Assembly: GCA_964488165.1 (NCBI GenBank) | Contig: CAZATU010000003.1 | Span: 79,372 to 143,371 of the forward strand | Length of the DNA: 64,000 bases | Origin: an uncultured Candidatus Peribacteria bacterium | GTDB taxonomy: Bacteria > Patescibacteriota > Gracilibacteria > Peribacterales > Peribacteraceae | Direction of reading: 5' to 3' | Shown here: positions 58,415 to 64,000 of the stretch, piece after piece | Layout: each line of letters begins with the position of its first letter | Position numbering within the stretch: position 1 is the stretch's first letter | Translations under genes and position numbers: made by a program | Notes under the pieces: generated by a model | The model's database searches: none | The model's input: only the letters and a program-made list of their open reading frames with translations | Told to the model about the DNA's origin: nothing

Positions 58415-60532
58415 TTACACCACGTCGGAGCCAGCAGACAGACCGTCAGGGCGGAAGCTCGCCGTTTCGACGCCGCCGGTGGGTGTGGTGCGGAAGACGC
58501 CGGCGTCGAGGCCGGGCCACGCGCGTTTGGTGGCTTCGTCGGCGGCGACATGAGCCTGGCCGTACGTCATGCCCTGGTTCAAGAAATGCACGAGGTAGTA
58601 GTCGTAGGGCGTATCGAAGTTGCGGCTGCGGCTGCCGTCGGGGTTCCTCGTTCTGCTGTCGGTGGTCCGGATGGGGTTCGGGAGCTCGGGCTTGGTCTGG
58701 ATGAAGACGCTGATGCGTCCGGACTCTCCGGCAGCTCGGAATTGCTCCGCCATGCGCCCGCTTTGGAAACCGCCGCTGTTGCAGCAGTTCATGCGCAGCA
58801 CGAAGCGGCAATCGTTGTACTTGCTCTTCTTGAACAAGTTCATGAGCTGGCTCGGCTCCAAATCAATCCTGCCTCCGCCGGGGATACCAAATCCTACACT
58901 CGTAGTATCGCCGTGGACGGAGAAATACAGATAGTGATTCTTGATACCGGCGCGGTAGGCAGCATCGAAACGCGACTCGAGGGTGCCAAGCAAGTCCCTA
59001 CCCGCGGCAAAGGTGTCGTTGCCGCCGCCAACCATGTTGTAGCCACGGCTGCCGAGGAATGAGCCGAAGTTGCGGGCATGGTTCTCCTCGGTGGGATCGG
59101 TCTGATCGAAGACACCCGTGTAGAGGATCGACTCGCCACGCGGGAGATCGAAGTTCCGGACGTTTGCGGCGTCGTTGGTCTCGCTCGCGCGGCGTTTGCG
59201 CGCAACTTGCAATGCTTCCTTGATGGCAGAGCCGTTAAGACCGGGTGATGCCAAGAAGGTTCTCGTAAGACCTGCAGCCTGCATGAGCATATCTGAGGCA
59301 TTCTGGAACACGATATTTTGTTCCATGACATGGTTGGTGACGGCCGCTGCAACGTACCAACGTTCGGTCGTACCACCATGATTGACTTCGATAGCGTACC
59401 TGCGGCCATGCTCCGGAGGATTGACGCGCTTGAGCGTGACACCATCGGAAGTACGATCGATACTGGCATCCAATCTGGTCCGAACACTGGAATCGTAGTC
59501 ATTGGCCATTTGCCGGTACACCGAGTTCGGATCTTCGGCAGTGGTACGCACCCAATCGAGACGTGTTTGAATGAAGGACCGTGCCGTCTCGGAATATTCG
59601 ACGCGATTGTAACCGGCACCTGGCGCGACGTCGGGGCCGCGCGGCATTGCGCCAGGCGGCGTTACTCCGGGGCTTGCCGAACCCGACACGGTAATGTCCT
59701 GCCACTGGTAGGGGTTGCGCTCCATTTGATCCTTCCAGCCCACGGAGAAAAGCCCCGGCCGGGTGAATTCGAAGCGGAATGTATGGATATCGCCGAAACG
59801 CGTGGGGCGCACGCGCACGCCGGCCGCCGCTAGAAGCGCGTTGCCGTTTGCCGGCTCCACACTGAGCGTGCGGCTGTTCACGTACACCGATTGCTGCACG
59901 CCACCGGTGCCCGGGAGTTTGACGGCAACAAGGGAGGTGGCATTCAGAATTTCCGTGGAAGCGAGCACGCCGCCGGGCGTCACCTCGGGAGCGCCGGGGG
60001 GTGGACCATAGGGAGGCGCATACGGGTTCGACGGCGGGCCACCATACGGCGCATACGGGTTCGACGGCGGGCCGGATTGCGACGAAGAGCCGGGTCTCCT
60101 GGGCCGCTGGGGGACTCGGCGGCCACCAGGAATGAAAGGCGAATTCGAAGGGTCGGACTGCGGCATGCCGTTGTAATACGGCGGCATGTACTGCGCGTAG
60201 GGATTCGCCTGCTGGCCGTATTGGCCGTAGTACATGTGGGGATATTGCTGGTTGCCCTGCTGCATGCCCGGGTAGCCACTCATCCCCTGCTGCTGCATGA
60301 ACATGTACATCGAGGCATCCACACCCTGGGAGCCGTACTGCTGATACACATTCTGGTAGCCGGGTGAGGCATAGAACTGATTCACGTATTTGAGCGCTTC
60401 CTGGACGCCGGATTCGATGTCGCGCGGCGTTTCACCGGCTCCCTCGGGGGGCGTCGGTCTGTTCTCGGGAGCGGCATGCTGCGCAAGCAGGCGACGTTCC
60501 GCGGCCGTCGAGAAAGCGATGCGGTGGTTCAT
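58415..60532 (-). CDS. Giant protein, paralog 3 (divergent): ERRLL N-motif, Q/Y/G/M/P low-complexity region, C-terminal caspase-fold domain
   Basis: Start trimmed to MNHRIAFSTAAERRLLAQH. ...HYLYFSVHGDTTSVG-(x32)-RFVLRMNCCNSGG (Cys codons at 58781-58786). It shares NFDLPRG... and YGQAHVAADEATKRAWPGLD with paralogs 1 and 2. Confidence 0.8.
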   Translation of the reverse strand: MNHRIAFSTAAERRLLAQHAAPENRPTPPEGAGETPRDIESGVQEALKYVNQFYASPGYQNVYQQYGSQGVDASMYMFMQQQGMSGYPGMQQGNQQYPHMYYGQYGQQANPYAQYMPPYYNGMPQSDPSNSPFIPGGRRVPQRPRRPGSSSQSGPPSNPYAPYGGPPSNPYAPPYGPPPGAPEVTPGGVLASTEILNATSLVAVKLPGTGGVQQSVYVNSRTLSVEPANGNALLAAAGVRVRPTRFGDIHTFRFEFTRPGLFSVGWKDQMERNPYQWQDITVSGSASPGVTPPGAMPRGPDVAPGAGYNRVEYSETARSFIQTRLDWVRTTAEDPNSVYRQMANDYDSSVRTRLDASIDRTSDGVTLKRVNPPEHGRRYAIEVNHGGTTERWYVAAAVTNHVMEQNIVFQNASDMLMQAAGLTRTFLASPGLNGSAIKEALQVARKRRASETNDAANVRNFDLPRGESILYTGVFDQTDPTEENHARNFGSFLGSRGYNMVGGGNDTFAAGRDLLGTLESRFDAAYRAGIKNHYLYFSVHGDTTSVGFGIPGGGRIDLEPSQLMNLFKKSKYNDCRFVLRMNCCNSGGFQSGRMAEQFRAAGESGRISVFIQTKPELPNPIRTTDSRTRNPDGSRSRNFDTPYDYYLVHFLNQGMTYGQAHVAADEATKRAWPGLDAGVFRTTPTGGVETASFRPDGLSAGSDVV

Positions 60533-60885
60533 ACAGACATGCGGGAAGAAGCGGCGTCGGCACCCAGAAGTTCGTCGGCCATTTTGAGCTGCCACACCCG
60601 CTCCCCTTCTTCTTTCGTGACGCGATCATTGCGCCGGTGCGTCTGGATTTCCTGCGCCTGCACATAGAGATAGCCGCTGAATTCCTTGAGCAGATCGCCG
60701 AACGTGCGGAAGGCCCTCCCGTAACGCTCCATACGCAGCCCGTGCTCCTCGGCCGTTTCACCTTTGTACTCCATGTCGAGGTACGGTAAACGGGCGCTGG
60801 TGAGCTCCGGCTCAATCACCGACATGAATCGGTCGTAAATCCACTCCGGGGGAGGCAAGCCTTGTGGGTTTGGTGTGGAAGGCAT
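60529..60885 (-). CDS. Small protein (118 aa), partner of giant paralog 3
   Basis: ATGA overlap with the giant's start. At most a weak resemblance of its charged C-terminal part to the 91/93-aa partners. Confidence 0.65.
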   Translation of the reverse strand: MPSTPNPQGLPPPEWIYDRFMSVIEPELTSARLPYLDMEYKGETAEEHGLRMERYGRAFRTFGDLLKEFSGYLYVQAQEIQTHRRNDRVTKEEGERVWQLKMADELLGADAASSRMSV

Positions 60886-60914: not shown

Positions 60915-60943
60915 ATTATACTTTTTTTACCCCAGAAAATCAA
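60915..60943 (-). promoter_or_regulatory. Sigma70-like promoter candidate, module 3
   Basis: Minus strand: TTGATT (60943-60938), 17-nt spacer, TATAAT (60920-60915). 29-nt leader to ATG 60885. Confidence 0.55.
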
Positions 60944-61791
60944 GCATCCGACGCCAGGTGCTGGGCACGATCCCACAGCGACTGCATGAGCGCGGAGCGG
61001 CGATTGCGCTCCTCTTCGGTGAGCGAAGACCATTCCTCCGGGGATGACCAGCGTTCGAGCAGCGTTTTGAGTGACTGCGCCTGCCGCAGGGCGGCCATGG
61101 AAGCTTGGTCGCTCTTGCCGGTGAACTGCTCCTGGATGGTGCCGACCACCTCGGCCGCCTTGCCCGCCGGCGCGAAGCCGGTCTGGCGGATCTGCGGGGC
61201 AAACTGCATGCCCGAAGCAGTCGACGACGGCTGTATCTGGGGCTGCGCAGGAAGACCGCCCGTAGGCTGAGCAGCCAGCTGCTGGGCGCGAAACGGCGGC
61301 GAAAGCAGGGCAAGCAACTCCTCCGGCACCACGCACCCCGCTTGGAGGCACAGGCCTTGGCAGCTCATGGAAAATTGCGTCAGCAATGCGAGGCGGCGCT
61401 CAAGATGCTCCACAGCATCGCGTCGCATGTCGAGGAAGATCTGGGGGGTGGGCGCCTGCAGAGCGCTCTCCCAATCGGGCTCGGGGATATCGCTCTGGAG
61501 TAGCGGATCGAGGGTGGCGAAGGCAGCGGCCGCGAGAGGCTGTGCGGCAACCGCGATGTCGCGCAATGTGTCGCGCGCCATAGCGAGCAGGTTCGCCCAC
61601 TGGTTCATGCCTTCGTTGAGACGGCGCCAGCTTTCCTGGAGACCAGCAATGCGGCGGCGCAACACGTCAGGCGTCTGTTCTGCGGCGGCAGCAGTGGCAT
61701 CCTTCTGTGAGAACAAGGCCTCAAACGCATCGCGCACCGAGGGGAGCGAAGCGGAGAGCGTCATGCCGGAAGCGGTCGGTGTGGAGGGCAT
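60940..61791 (-). CDS. Hypothetical helical protein (283 aa)
   Basis: Long ORF with non-mirror composition, lying between the transglutaminase-like gene and module 3. No motif recognised. Confidence 0.65.
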   Translation of the reverse strand: MPSTPTASGMTLSASLPSVRDAFEALFSQKDATAAAAEQTPDVLRRRIAGLQESWRRLNEGMNQWANLLAMARDTLRDIAVAAQPLAAAAFATLDPLLQSDIPEPDWESALQAPTPQIFLDMRRDAVEHLERRLALLTQFSMSCQGLCLQAGCVVPEELLALLSPPFRAQQLAAQPTGGLPAQPQIQPSSTASGMQFAPQIRQTGFAPAGKAAEVVGTIQEQFTGKSDQASMAALRQAQSLKTLLERWSSPEEWSSLTEEERNRRSALMQSLWDRAQHLASDA

Positions 61792-61797
61792 GGTCGT

Positions 61798-63999
61798 TTA
61801 TTGGAAATAGGGCGGATATCCGCCTGGGCCGGGAGGCAGGATGCCTTCCGGCGAGCCGCTGGGAGTGCCCGGGTACCCGCCGTAGGGCGAGGTTCCCGGC
61901 AGCATGCCCGGCGGATACTGCCCCGGAGCACCGGGGAAGTTGCCATAGGACGGCGGGCCTGAAGGACGCATACCACCGTAGGGCAGAGTGCCCGGAATCA
62001 CGCGCGGCGCACCGGGCCGGGTGCCGTAGGGTGCCATGCCCGGACCCATGCCGGGGTAGCCGCTGGGTCCTTGCGGCATACCCGGATAGCCGGGCCGCCC
62101 CTGGGGCATACCAGGCATCCCGGGCATACCGCCGTAGGAGGGTGGGCGCGGCGCGGACATGCCGCCGCCACGATTGTGGACGATCTGGTTCCAATCGAAA
62201 TCCCCGAAACCGATGAACGCATGTTGGGCGTTGCCGCCCTGAATGGTATTGGTGACGATGGCCGAGATGCCGCCGCCGCGTGCAGCCACCTCGCGGGCGC
62301 GACCCTGCGCTTCGGGCGGCATGCCCTGGGTACTGGTGAGTTCCCAGTCGACGCCGCTGCGACCGCCGCCGCTCCAGATGGATTGCATGGCTTCGGCAGG
62401 ATTGCGATAGACGCGCGGCACTCGTTGGAACCCGCCGGTGTCGATCTTGCAGAGGATGTATCCCCCGTTCGACGAACGTTCCAGATAGGCGCACACGTAG
62501 TGACCGGGGGTGGCGCGAGCGACGATGTTGCTGATGCCCGCGGCATCCAGAAGGCTGCTCGCGAGCACGGCGAAGTCCTCGCAGTCGCCGGTGGCGCGCA
62601 TGAGCGATTCTTCGGCCGACTGGATGTACTGCTGGCCCGCAGCCTCCGCTTCGAAGTTCACGGTGGAAGCCGTACGAATGCGGTTGCCGGTGCGCGTGAT
62701 GCTGTCTTCGACGGTGAAGTACGATGACACGAACGCGCCGATCGCCTCGGGCGAACCAAGCTGTCGACCCATTTGCTGGAGCATCTGGCGTGCATGATCC
62801 GGGCTCTGCGGACGTTGATTGAGAGACACGGGGCCACCTTCGCCGACGACGTGCATGCCGTGAGGAAGCTGGATCGGGGCGCCTGTGCCGTCGGCACCGG
62901 CGGACACGGACGCCTGCTGGCCGTTGATGCGCACGAGCGCGGGGCGATCGGTGCGGCCGTCGTAGAACACGGTCGCCACAGGGGTGGAACTGCCGTTAAA
63001 GATTTCGCGCACGGTGCGGCCGTCCTGCAGCTCCACGACGCGCGCACTGCCGCCGGGGCCCTGGATGCGGAATTCATCGCCGCGCGCAGTGGTGCCCCAG
63101 GTGACCTGACTTCCATCGGAGCCCTGCCAGGAGCCGCTGCCGACGCGGACGGGTCCGCGGCCGACGAGCGTCTGCGTCCGCGTGACGACCACCGCCTGGC
63201 CCGACGCACCCTCCGCCCAGATGCGCATGCCGTCACTCATGACGCGCATGGGGCCCATCGACTGGATCGCCATGGTGAGGCGTTGTGCCATGTTCTGGAG
63301 CTCCGCGCCGTGCTCCGCGAGGCGGGACGGCGGAATGTTGTGGCGCAGATGGAACGTGCCGCTCACGCCTTGCACCTCGATGCGCTGCCCAGCGACGGAG
63401 AGTTGCTGAAGGACATTCATGATGTACTGACCGTTGAGCTGCTGCTCCTGTGCGTCCCACTCCACGCTCACGTTGGTATTCGAGGGCGTCGGGCCCATGT
63501 TGGGTGGAGCTCCGTACGGAGCTCCCGGAACTCGGCCCATCTGCGGATATCCGCCCTGGTACATGCCGGGACGGTTGATGTTCACCTGCGGCATGTTGCC
63601 CCAGGCGCTCGGAAGGCCGGGGTACATGCCGGGATTCAATGCATGCGCGTACGGGCGGGCAGGGGCCAGGTACGGGCTACCCGGCTGCGGAAACTGGAAC
63701 TGCCGTCCGTAGTTCATCTGCTGGAAGCGCACCTGCGGAGGCACGCCGTGGTTGGAGGTGACGTGATGCATGGGGCCGCCGGGCCGGTGCGAGCTGAAGA
63801 GCTGCGGCGCGCCGCCGTTGAATGACTGAATCGCAAAGCGCTGGTCGGGGCTGCCCCACACCGGTCCGCTCGCCTGGTGCGGAATGGCCGACGGCCAGCC
63901 GCCAAGCTGCGGTTGCGACGGCATGCCCGGCATGACGAAGGGCGACGTGCGCATGGTCGTTGGGCCCATCTGGGGGCCCATCTGCGACCAGGAGTTCAT
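61798..63999 (-). CDS. P/G/Y/M/Q-rich protein with transglutaminase-like Cys-His-Asp core (may extend beyond window end)
   Basis: ...MRATGDCEDFAVLASSLLDAAGISNIVARATPGHYVCAYLERSSNGGYILCKIDTGG. Cys at 62581-62583, His at 62500-62502, Asp at 62440-62442. Flanked by GMPGMPGMPQGRPGYPGMPQG...GGYPPYFQ and an N-terminal P/Q/G/M-rich region. The ATG at 63997-63999 is 1 nt from the window edge. Confidence 0.8.
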   Translation of the reverse strand: MNSWSQMGPQMGPTTMRTSPFVMPGMPSQPQLGGWPSAIPHQASGPVWGSPDQRFAIQSFNGGAPQLFSSHRPGGPMHHVTSNHGVPPQVRFQQMNYGRQFQFPQPGSPYLAPARPYAHALNPGMYPGLPSAWGNMPQVNINRPGMYQGGYPQMGRVPGAPYGAPPNMGPTPSNTNVSVEWDAQEQQLNGQYIMNVLQQLSVAGQRIEVQGVSGTFHLRHNIPPSRLAEHGAELQNMAQRLTMAIQSMGPMRVMSDGMRIWAEGASGQAVVVTRTQTLVGRGPVRVGSGSWQGSDGSQVTWGTTARGDEFRIQGPGGSARVVELQDGRTVREIFNGSSTPVATVFYDGRTDRPALVRINGQQASVSAGADGTGAPIQLPHGMHVVGEGGPVSLNQRPQSPDHARQMLQQMGRQLGSPEAIGAFVSSYFTVEDSITRTGNRIRTASTVNFEAEAAGQQYIQSAEESLMRATGDCEDFAVLASSLLDAAGISNIVARATPGHYVCAYLERSSNGGYILCKIDTGGFQRVPRVYRNPAEAMQSIWSGGGRSGVDWELTSTQGMPPEAQGRAREVAARGGGISAIVTNTIQGGNAQHAFIGFGDFDWNQIVHNRGGGMSAPRPPSYGGMPGMPGMPQGRPGYPGMPQGPSGYPGMGPGMAPYGTRPGAPRVIPGTLPYGGMRPSGPPSYGNFPGAPGQYPPGMLPGTSPYGGYPGTPSGSPEGILPPGPGGYPPYFQ

Positions 64000-64000
64000 A

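Follow-up and report, generated by a model that had tools for sequence, protein, structure and literature searches.

Gene and protein architecture

A window of 64,000 nucleotides from the genome of an uncultured Candidatus Peribacteria bacterium (C3:79372-143371; genome of 1.23 Mb in 10 contigs, 62% GC, 99.8% complete) holds, at its far end, most of a gene that encodes a transglutaminase-like protein of 775 aa; gene and product are here labelled TGL. TGL is read from the minus strand and occupies 61798-64125, with its stop codon TAA at 61798-61800 and the part 61798-64000 inside the window. A preliminary description of this DNA had bounded the open reading frame (ORF) at 63999, which proved too short: the frame stays open for 89 further codons outside the window, and the first ATG there, giving MPFQPESPHGQD..., sets the start at window-equivalent 64125 (C3:143496), 42 codons past the window end. 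The resulting N-terminus, MPFQPES, aligns with the start MPYGPEYQ... of the orthologue P0003. Among named organisms, Candidatus Peregrinibacteria bacterium Gr01-1014_25 encodes the closest relative of the protein.

The protein begins with a low-complexity tract defined by composition (residues 1-218; 63472-64000 plus 126 nt outside the window), which is followed by a globular part of 436 aa (residues 219-654). This comprises an N-terminal domain of helices and then a 12-strand antiparallel beta-meander (62815-63471, from the AlphaFold2 model), for which no Pfam match was found, and a transglutaminase-like cysteine-peptidase core of 217 aa (62164-62814; Pfam, PDB profile, hhalign, AlphaFold2 and Foldseek). 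A second low-complexity tract, again defined by composition, forms the C-terminal tail (residues 655-775; 61801-62163). All of these features lie on the minus strand. The Cys/His/Asp peptide quoted in the preliminary description is present in the core, and comprises the putative nucleophile Cys515 within GDCEDFA (62581-62583, TGC), the putative catalytic His542 27 residues later (62500-62502) and Asp562, a candidate third residue of the triad, after a further 20 residues (62440-62442).

Homology of the core

Single-sequence searches of Pfam, NCBIfam and PDB returned sub-threshold matches only. Full-length TGL matched DUF553 (E = 2e-3, 18 bits) and Transglut_core (E = 0.015, 16 bits) over the Cys motif; when the domain alone was the query, DUF553 (PF04473) scored 20.5 bits, exactly its curated cut-off of 20.5, and Transglut_core (PF01841) 18.6 bits against a cut-off of 23. 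Weak matches to DUF553 and Transglut_core recurred in all four close homologues examined, and to Peptidase_C93 in three of the four; in the wider family, Transglut_core is matched at E <= 0.01 by 14 of 31 members. Since the single-sequence matches were sub-threshold, profiles were needed. A profile of the globular region, searched against 1.84 billion representatives, recovered 30 family members at E <= 1e-10 and 64 further, distant proteins at E <= 1e-3, among which Pfam places 46 in Transglut_core, 42 in DUF553 and 32 in BTLCP/Peptidase_C93. Alignment of the family with 20 of these distant proteins by hhalign superimposed Cys on Cys and His on His with a probability of 99.6% (E = 2.6e-24), a value that is somewhat inflated because the 20 targets had been chosen by the same family profile; their Pfam membership is independent of that choice, and 19 of the 20 are bona fide Pfam members. 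When the core profile was compared with the PDB, LapG alone was matched (4fgo, E = 1.4e-3; 4u65), through an alignment spanning ...YWKSPVEFIVDGGGDCEDFAI.... By profile and profile-profile searches, then, the TGL core is homologous to the transglutaminase-like superfamily.

Within that superfamily TGL is the product of a narrow lineage. The family numbers about 30 clusters at 50% identity, distributed over part of one Peribacteria-like taxonomic family, and a phylum-wide sample of 300 genomes gave no match outside that taxonomic family. TGL is a new, lineage-restricted family and architecture inside a well-known superfamily. The nearest sequence relatives outside the family are a widespread, uncharacterised group of short DUF553/Transglut_core proteins (P0043-P0095), which have the pattern TP...(D)YWQSP.ETL...GDCEDFA.LA...HA.C in common with the TGL family. 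Unlike TGL, they are only 150-210 aa long and have neither the beta-meander nor the genomic context described below, and many of 20 such proteins have a hydrophobic, signal-peptide-like N-terminus.

Active-site residues and the likeness to LapG

Conservation was counted over 31 family representatives, which are 20-50% identical overall. Cys and His are found in 31/31, and the residues around Cys in the GDCED motif are nearly as constant (D in 29, E in 25 and the second D in 28 of the 31). Invariance is joined by alignment in the assignment of both catalytic residues, Cys515 to the catalytic Cys of LapG and His542 to the His conserved in proteins of the Transglut_core type. TGL and its close relatives carry all three of Cys, His and Asp. 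Glu549, a nearly invariant residue in the motif YLE, seven residues past His, was considered as the third catalytic residue and rejected for its position at the opposite end of the strand that His begins.

The LapG/DvhG proteases (BTLCP; Peptidase_C93; 4FGO, 4U65) are the best match of TGL in both sequence profile and structure. They have the same Cys-His-Asp order and an identical G-D-C-E-D-(F/Y)-A motif, including the calcium-binding D and E. In LapG and DvhG the D and E beside the nucleophile bind calcium (PMC13090378, PMC4359373), and mutation of these ligands flanking Cys (D316A/E318A) inactivates DvhG (PMC13090378). The D and E flanking Cys515 correspond to these calcium ligands, and may form a metal site in TGL. 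The likeness has clear limits. TGL scores only 12.6 bits with Peptidase_C93 (PF06035) in the domain-only search, far under the cut-off of 27; it is about four times larger than LapG, through its beta-meander domain and low-complexity tracts; and it stands in another operon context, where its neighbours are orphan proteins. LapD- or LapA-type partners and a TAAG site did not turn up, although no genome search was aimed at LapD or LapA.

A further difference concerns localisation. The LapG family is secreted to the periplasm, whereas neither a signal peptide nor a hydrophobic N-terminal or transmembrane segment was found in any of the 31 members of the TGL family, and the family proteins are for this reason predicted to be cytoplasmic, or else exported via an unrecognised route. 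Bacteria of the candidate phyla radiation (CPR) are generally taken to be monoderm, without a periplasm. The N-termini of most family members (P0006-P0031) start MP..(T)PE... and have an E..RR(V/L)..(I/V)(E/D) motif about 35-45 residues in; in TGL itself this region is Q/M-rich (WQQRQTQMMQ).

Predicted structure

An AlphaFold2 model of the 436-aa globular part, built with a 31-sequence alignment, is of high predicted quality (predicted local distance difference test, pLDDT, 91.7; predicted template-modelling score, pTM, 0.91). It runs from three helices through twelve consecutive antiparallel strands, each at a pLDDT above 90, into an alpha/beta core, so that the beta-rich region noted ahead of the core in the preliminary description is borne out. 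The high pTM indicates that beta-meander and catalytic core form one rigid body in the model. In Foldseek searches the meander gave weak matches to the single-layer beta-sheet of OspA (probability 0.7-0.9).

For a model of the core alone (pLDDT 91.9), the top 14 Foldseek matches were all transglutaminase-fold proteases (LapG, CPR-C4 and 3isr), LapG and CPR-C4 having a probability of 1.00, and those lower down (3kd4, menin, Rad4, PeiP and PNGase) were likewise transglutaminase-fold proteins. Cys515 is the first residue of a helix and His542 the first of a strand in the models, while Asp562, assigned from strand register and partial conservation, ends the adjacent antiparallel strand. This is the Cys-His-Asp arrangement expected for a papain-like fold, the proximity of the residues following from secondary-structure register and homology. 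The papain-like or transglutaminase-like fold proposed in the preliminary description therefore has profile similarity and predicted structure in agreement behind it.

CPR-C4 (7OB6, 7PJO; PMC9108980) is, like TGL, a transglutaminase-like cysteine protease of CPR bacteria. The TGL core superposes on CPR-C4 with a Foldseek probability of 1.00, a TM-score (template-modelling score) of 0.35 and a root-mean-square deviation of 3.8-5 Å over about 137 columns. There is no detectable sequence similarity between TGL and CPR-C4, however, and the family profile misses 7OB6; CPR-C4 itself forms a homodimer of 220 aa, carries a zinc site and is without the accessory domains. The resemblance of the modelled core to CPR-C4 and the vasohibins is structural only, and TGL is not placed in their family. 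The third position of the triad also differs: in CPR-C4 and the vasohibins (known from humans) it is filled by a backbone carbonyl (of Leu in CPR-C4; PMC9108980), where TGL has Asp. Use of a backbone carbonyl could explain the Gly and His variants found at this position in the TGL family.

Low-complexity tracts

The tracts that flank the globular part, reported in the preliminary description, are real when set against the contig background, the N-terminal one being P/Q/G/M-rich and the C-terminal one P/G/Y/M-rich. The N-terminal tract (218 aa) consists of 17% P, 13% Q, 12% G and 10% M, with 29 Gln and no lysine; the C-terminal tail (121 aa) of 28% P, 26% G, 9% Y and 7% M, again with no lysine. 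For comparison, P, G, Y and M make up about 6, 8, 2 and 3% of long ORFs of the contig. The N-terminal tract is found in close orthologues (P0003, P0004 and P0007) and not in distant family members. The C-terminal tract is absent from P0003 and P0004, two of three close orthologues, and has another composition in P0005. Three substitutions separate TGL from its counterpart in a near-identical strain (P0002), namely Q41H, G692A and L763P, and all fall in the low-complexity tracts, the 436 globular residues showing no difference. The location of these substitutions and the loss of the tail in close orthologues mark the tracts as fast-evolving appendages. Tandem repeats in the DNA were ruled out as their origin, since only three short arrays were detected, with a 9-bp repeat in the region of the C-terminal tail.

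Lysine depletion in TGL is extreme: its 775 aa include one Lys and 48 Arg, where the median for the contig is 2.6% Lys. Close orthologues contain 0.3-0.8% Lys and distant family members 2-7%. Other Lys-poor low-complexity proteins are encoded elsewhere on C3 (window-equivalent coordinates), with 4 Lys in 838 aa (71989-74505), 2 in 372 (81098-82216) and 0 in 109 (82213-82542).

A conserved trio of genes

TGL belongs to a putative transcription unit, most of it beyond the window, which encodes, in order, a small helical protein of ~112 aa (window-equivalent ~66310-66645, in C3:145678-146118, window-equivalent 66307-66747), a leader-bearing protein of 692 aa (C3:143579-145657, window-equivalent 64208-66286), TGL, and a helical protein of 283 aa (minus strand, 60940-61791). 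The last of these was correctly described as co-directional with TGL; it starts 6 nt after the TGL stop and is probably the last gene of the unit. It is genus-specific, its sole homologue being at the same position in the sister genome, and it has no family matches. The first three genes (small, 'big' and TGL) recur together in 12 fetched loci. At least 17 genomes, from at least 10 genera, have TGL 2.5-5 kb downstream of a type-A small gene and in the same orientation, usually adjoining carA, and TGL is present in 18 of 27 genomes with a type-A small gene as against 13 of 173 others (Fisher p = 3e-11). The trio is a conserved, operon-like unit.

Its extent is suggested by promoter-like sites. 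One such site was found upstream of the trio's small gene, and none in the 82-nt gap before TGL. Another, TTGATT-17-TATAAT (10/12 by consensus match only), lies at 60943-60915 on the minus strand, 5' of the small gene of the downstream gene string called module 3, and this putative promoter sets module 3 apart from the TGL unit. The statement that TGL heads the module-3 string is accordingly to be corrected: its place is third in a separate, upstream trio, and module 3 has a promoter-like site of its own.

The small proteins of the trio are 46-68% identical across genera. They belong to a helical family without Pfam match (LYD.LM.EIEPDLL...LDAKYAGET.EEH..RM.RY..AYKKFD). In the taxonomic family, 188 of 200 genomes encode homologues, with 1-9 copies each; the present genome has five, and one paralogue lies inside the window (60529-60885). 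The 'big' proteins are ~610-810 aa long and fast-evolving, with a mean column identity of 25% (loci L001, L002 and L019-L029), and the leader alone is conserved. This leader, ME..H..LF...SLRExRL, is found in 13/13 'big' proteins, with S15, E18 and R20 invariant, and the E..RR(V/L) motif in the N-termini of the TGL family recalls its SLRExRL segment. The three closest 'big' orthologues end in KPSG(S/N)(D/N)S.P(R/V), which holds the sole Lys of their M/G/P tail.

Searches of the 692-aa, small and 283-aa proteins, and of large neighbours in other genomes, gave no matches worth noting in Pfam, PADLOC or PHROGs, and a defence-system or phage origin was set aside for want of a supporting match in the PADLOC and PHROGs scans. 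In several distant genera the small gene is preceded, on the opposite strand, by a divergent pair of ORFs (~1000-1380 aa and ~280-500 aa; L019-L025), without Pfam match (L019 and L021 scanned) and without BLAST similarity to the 21 labelled contig proteins compared. On C3 itself, a co-directional set at window-equivalent 71989-79239 is kept in the sister genome (L030 6037-13066) and encodes, in order, a 1049-aa signal-peptide protein, a 525-aa Gly-rich multi-pass membrane protein and a protein of 838 aa whose N-terminus is rich in M/P/G and which has what look like two hydrophobic segments that may span the membrane.

Proposed function

Our favoured interpretation, held with moderate confidence, is that TGL is a non-secreted, papain-fold cysteine endopeptidase, possibly metal-dependent, that acts on a co-encoded leader-bearing protein. 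Homology, fold, residue conservation, the absence of signal peptides and synteny are matters of observation, and from these we infer a peptidase chemistry, metal dependence and a substrate. The invariant Cys-His pair of the core, with Asp in third position here, would carry out catalysis, and hydrolysis by an endopeptidase, possibly calcium-dependent, is favoured over cross-linking because the nearest relatives are endopeptidases, the motif is that of BTLCP, the Trp signature is missing and the tracts are free of lysine. The beta-meander packed on the core would act as a docking platform or spacer. As TGL is third in a conserved trio, the substrate would be the co-encoded leader-bearing 'big' protein, and perhaps other leader-bearing paralogues as well.

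Several points weigh against this interpretation. The single-sequence Pfam scores are under, or merely at, their curated cut-offs; the structural matches have modest Foldseek E-values (2e-3) and TM-scores of 0.35-0.43, and the core alone superposes, so that the resemblance is confined to the catalytic core. The third residue is Asp in just 14 of the 31 representatives (Gly in 8, His in 6, Glu in 2), and the placement of the triad is predicted from strand register. The leader shows no evident di-alanine cleavage motif of the LapG type. The superfamily also includes transamidases, deamidases, acyltransferases and non-enzymes such as menin and Rad4, and both peptidase activity and substrate are reached by inference.

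The preliminary description had offered cross-linking or processing of the low-complexity proteins, both of which were fair options, and of the two the evidence favours processing. A cross-linking transglutaminase would use Gln-Lys isopeptide bonds to build a matrix or coat from the Gln-rich low-complexity proteins that the locus encodes, much as Tgl cross-links proteins in the Bacillus spore coat. The superfamily and triad are held in common, Gln-rich tracts occur in the neighbours as well as in TGL, a single Lys in 775 aa would prevent TGL from cross-linking itself, and the one Lys in the M/G/P tail of the upstream protein sits in a KPSG motif common to its two closest orthologues. The analogy with Bacillus subtilis Tgl and the animal transglutaminases is nonetheless functional only, extending to papain-like thiol chemistry and to Gln-rich or low-complexity structural proteins, and there is no specific sequence similarity to them. 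Animal cross-linking transglutaminases of the factor XIII/TG2 type have a G-Q-C-W-type signature, the conserved tryptophans of which are required for transamidation, whereas no member of the TGL family has Trp next to Cys, the motif being G-D-C-E-D-F-A as in the BTLCP proteases, and the nearest relatives in sequence and structure are all hydrolases. Because the TGL tracts are without lysine they provide no amine partner, and Gln-Lys bonds between such tracts are therefore implausible; the depletion itself is limited to the closest clade. We consider cross-linking unlikely on these grounds, and conversion of Gln to Glu by a protein glutaminase/deamidase or other amidase, which would alter charge and assembly of the Gln/Met-rich tracts, somewhat more so. 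Cys-His-Asp deamidases and amidases of the same fold exist (protein-glutaminase, Ntaq1 and PNGase), PNGase and PeiP are among the weak Foldseek matches, and uncharged Gln-rich tracts are plentiful nearby, but TGL lacks specific similarity to any deamidase family, endopeptidases are its best matches, and the Gln-rich tracts are lineage-specific while the enzyme family is broader.

Three caspase-like genes lie within about 16 kb of TGL, and an invariant His/Cys pair is common to the C-terminal domains of their products. A profile of the caspase-like domain found no sequence match in the PDB. That TGL and these three caspase-fold proteins make up one proteolytic cascade or module, a model implied by the preliminary description and echoed by a metagenomic contig (L002) with a caspase-like gene two genes downstream, is very improbable and largely refuted by distribution. 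Among the 200 genomes TGL is present in 31 and caspase-like genes in 28, and the two occur together in 6, where 4.3 would be expected (Fisher p = 0.25); TGL is present without any caspase-like gene in the sister genome G493; other genomes that hold both have them on different contigs; and module 3 is preceded by its separate promoter-like site. The proximity seen here is local and not a conserved association. Least probable of all is a catalytically inert scaffold that keeps the fold, like menin and Rad4/XPC: the third triad residue is indeed variable and transglutaminase-fold non-enzymes are among the lower Foldseek matches, yet Cys and His are retained in all 31 representatives despite 20-50% identity, and the acidic residues near Cys are nearly invariant.

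A wider proposal, which we regard as possible if rather doubtful, makes TGL a dedicated enzyme (maturation protease or ligase) in a leader-dependent system of protein handling that would extend across Peribacteria. The small helical protein would be an 'escort' that binds the N-terminal SLRExRL leader of the large cargo, and TGL would be the enzyme that removes or remodels this leader. The proposal draws on the presence of escort genes in 188/200 genomes and on the related E..RR(V/L)..IE motif in the TGL family, and such a system, if true, would give CPR bacteria a new pathway of targeting or assembly that is independent of Sec.

Significance

CPR bacteria represent a large share of bacterial diversity, yet the majority of the proteins specific to their lineages lack annotation. 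Here an orphan family gains a fold and a probable chemistry, and the operon assignment of TGL is corrected. Should TGL turn out to be simply a housekeeping protease, the gain would stop at a useful annotation. Through the trio, TGL is linked to a multi-copy family of small proteins that is near-universal in this lineage, which gives a concrete, testable enzyme-substrate hypothesis, and the trio system may be a new way for episymbiotic bacteria to handle large low-complexity proteins.

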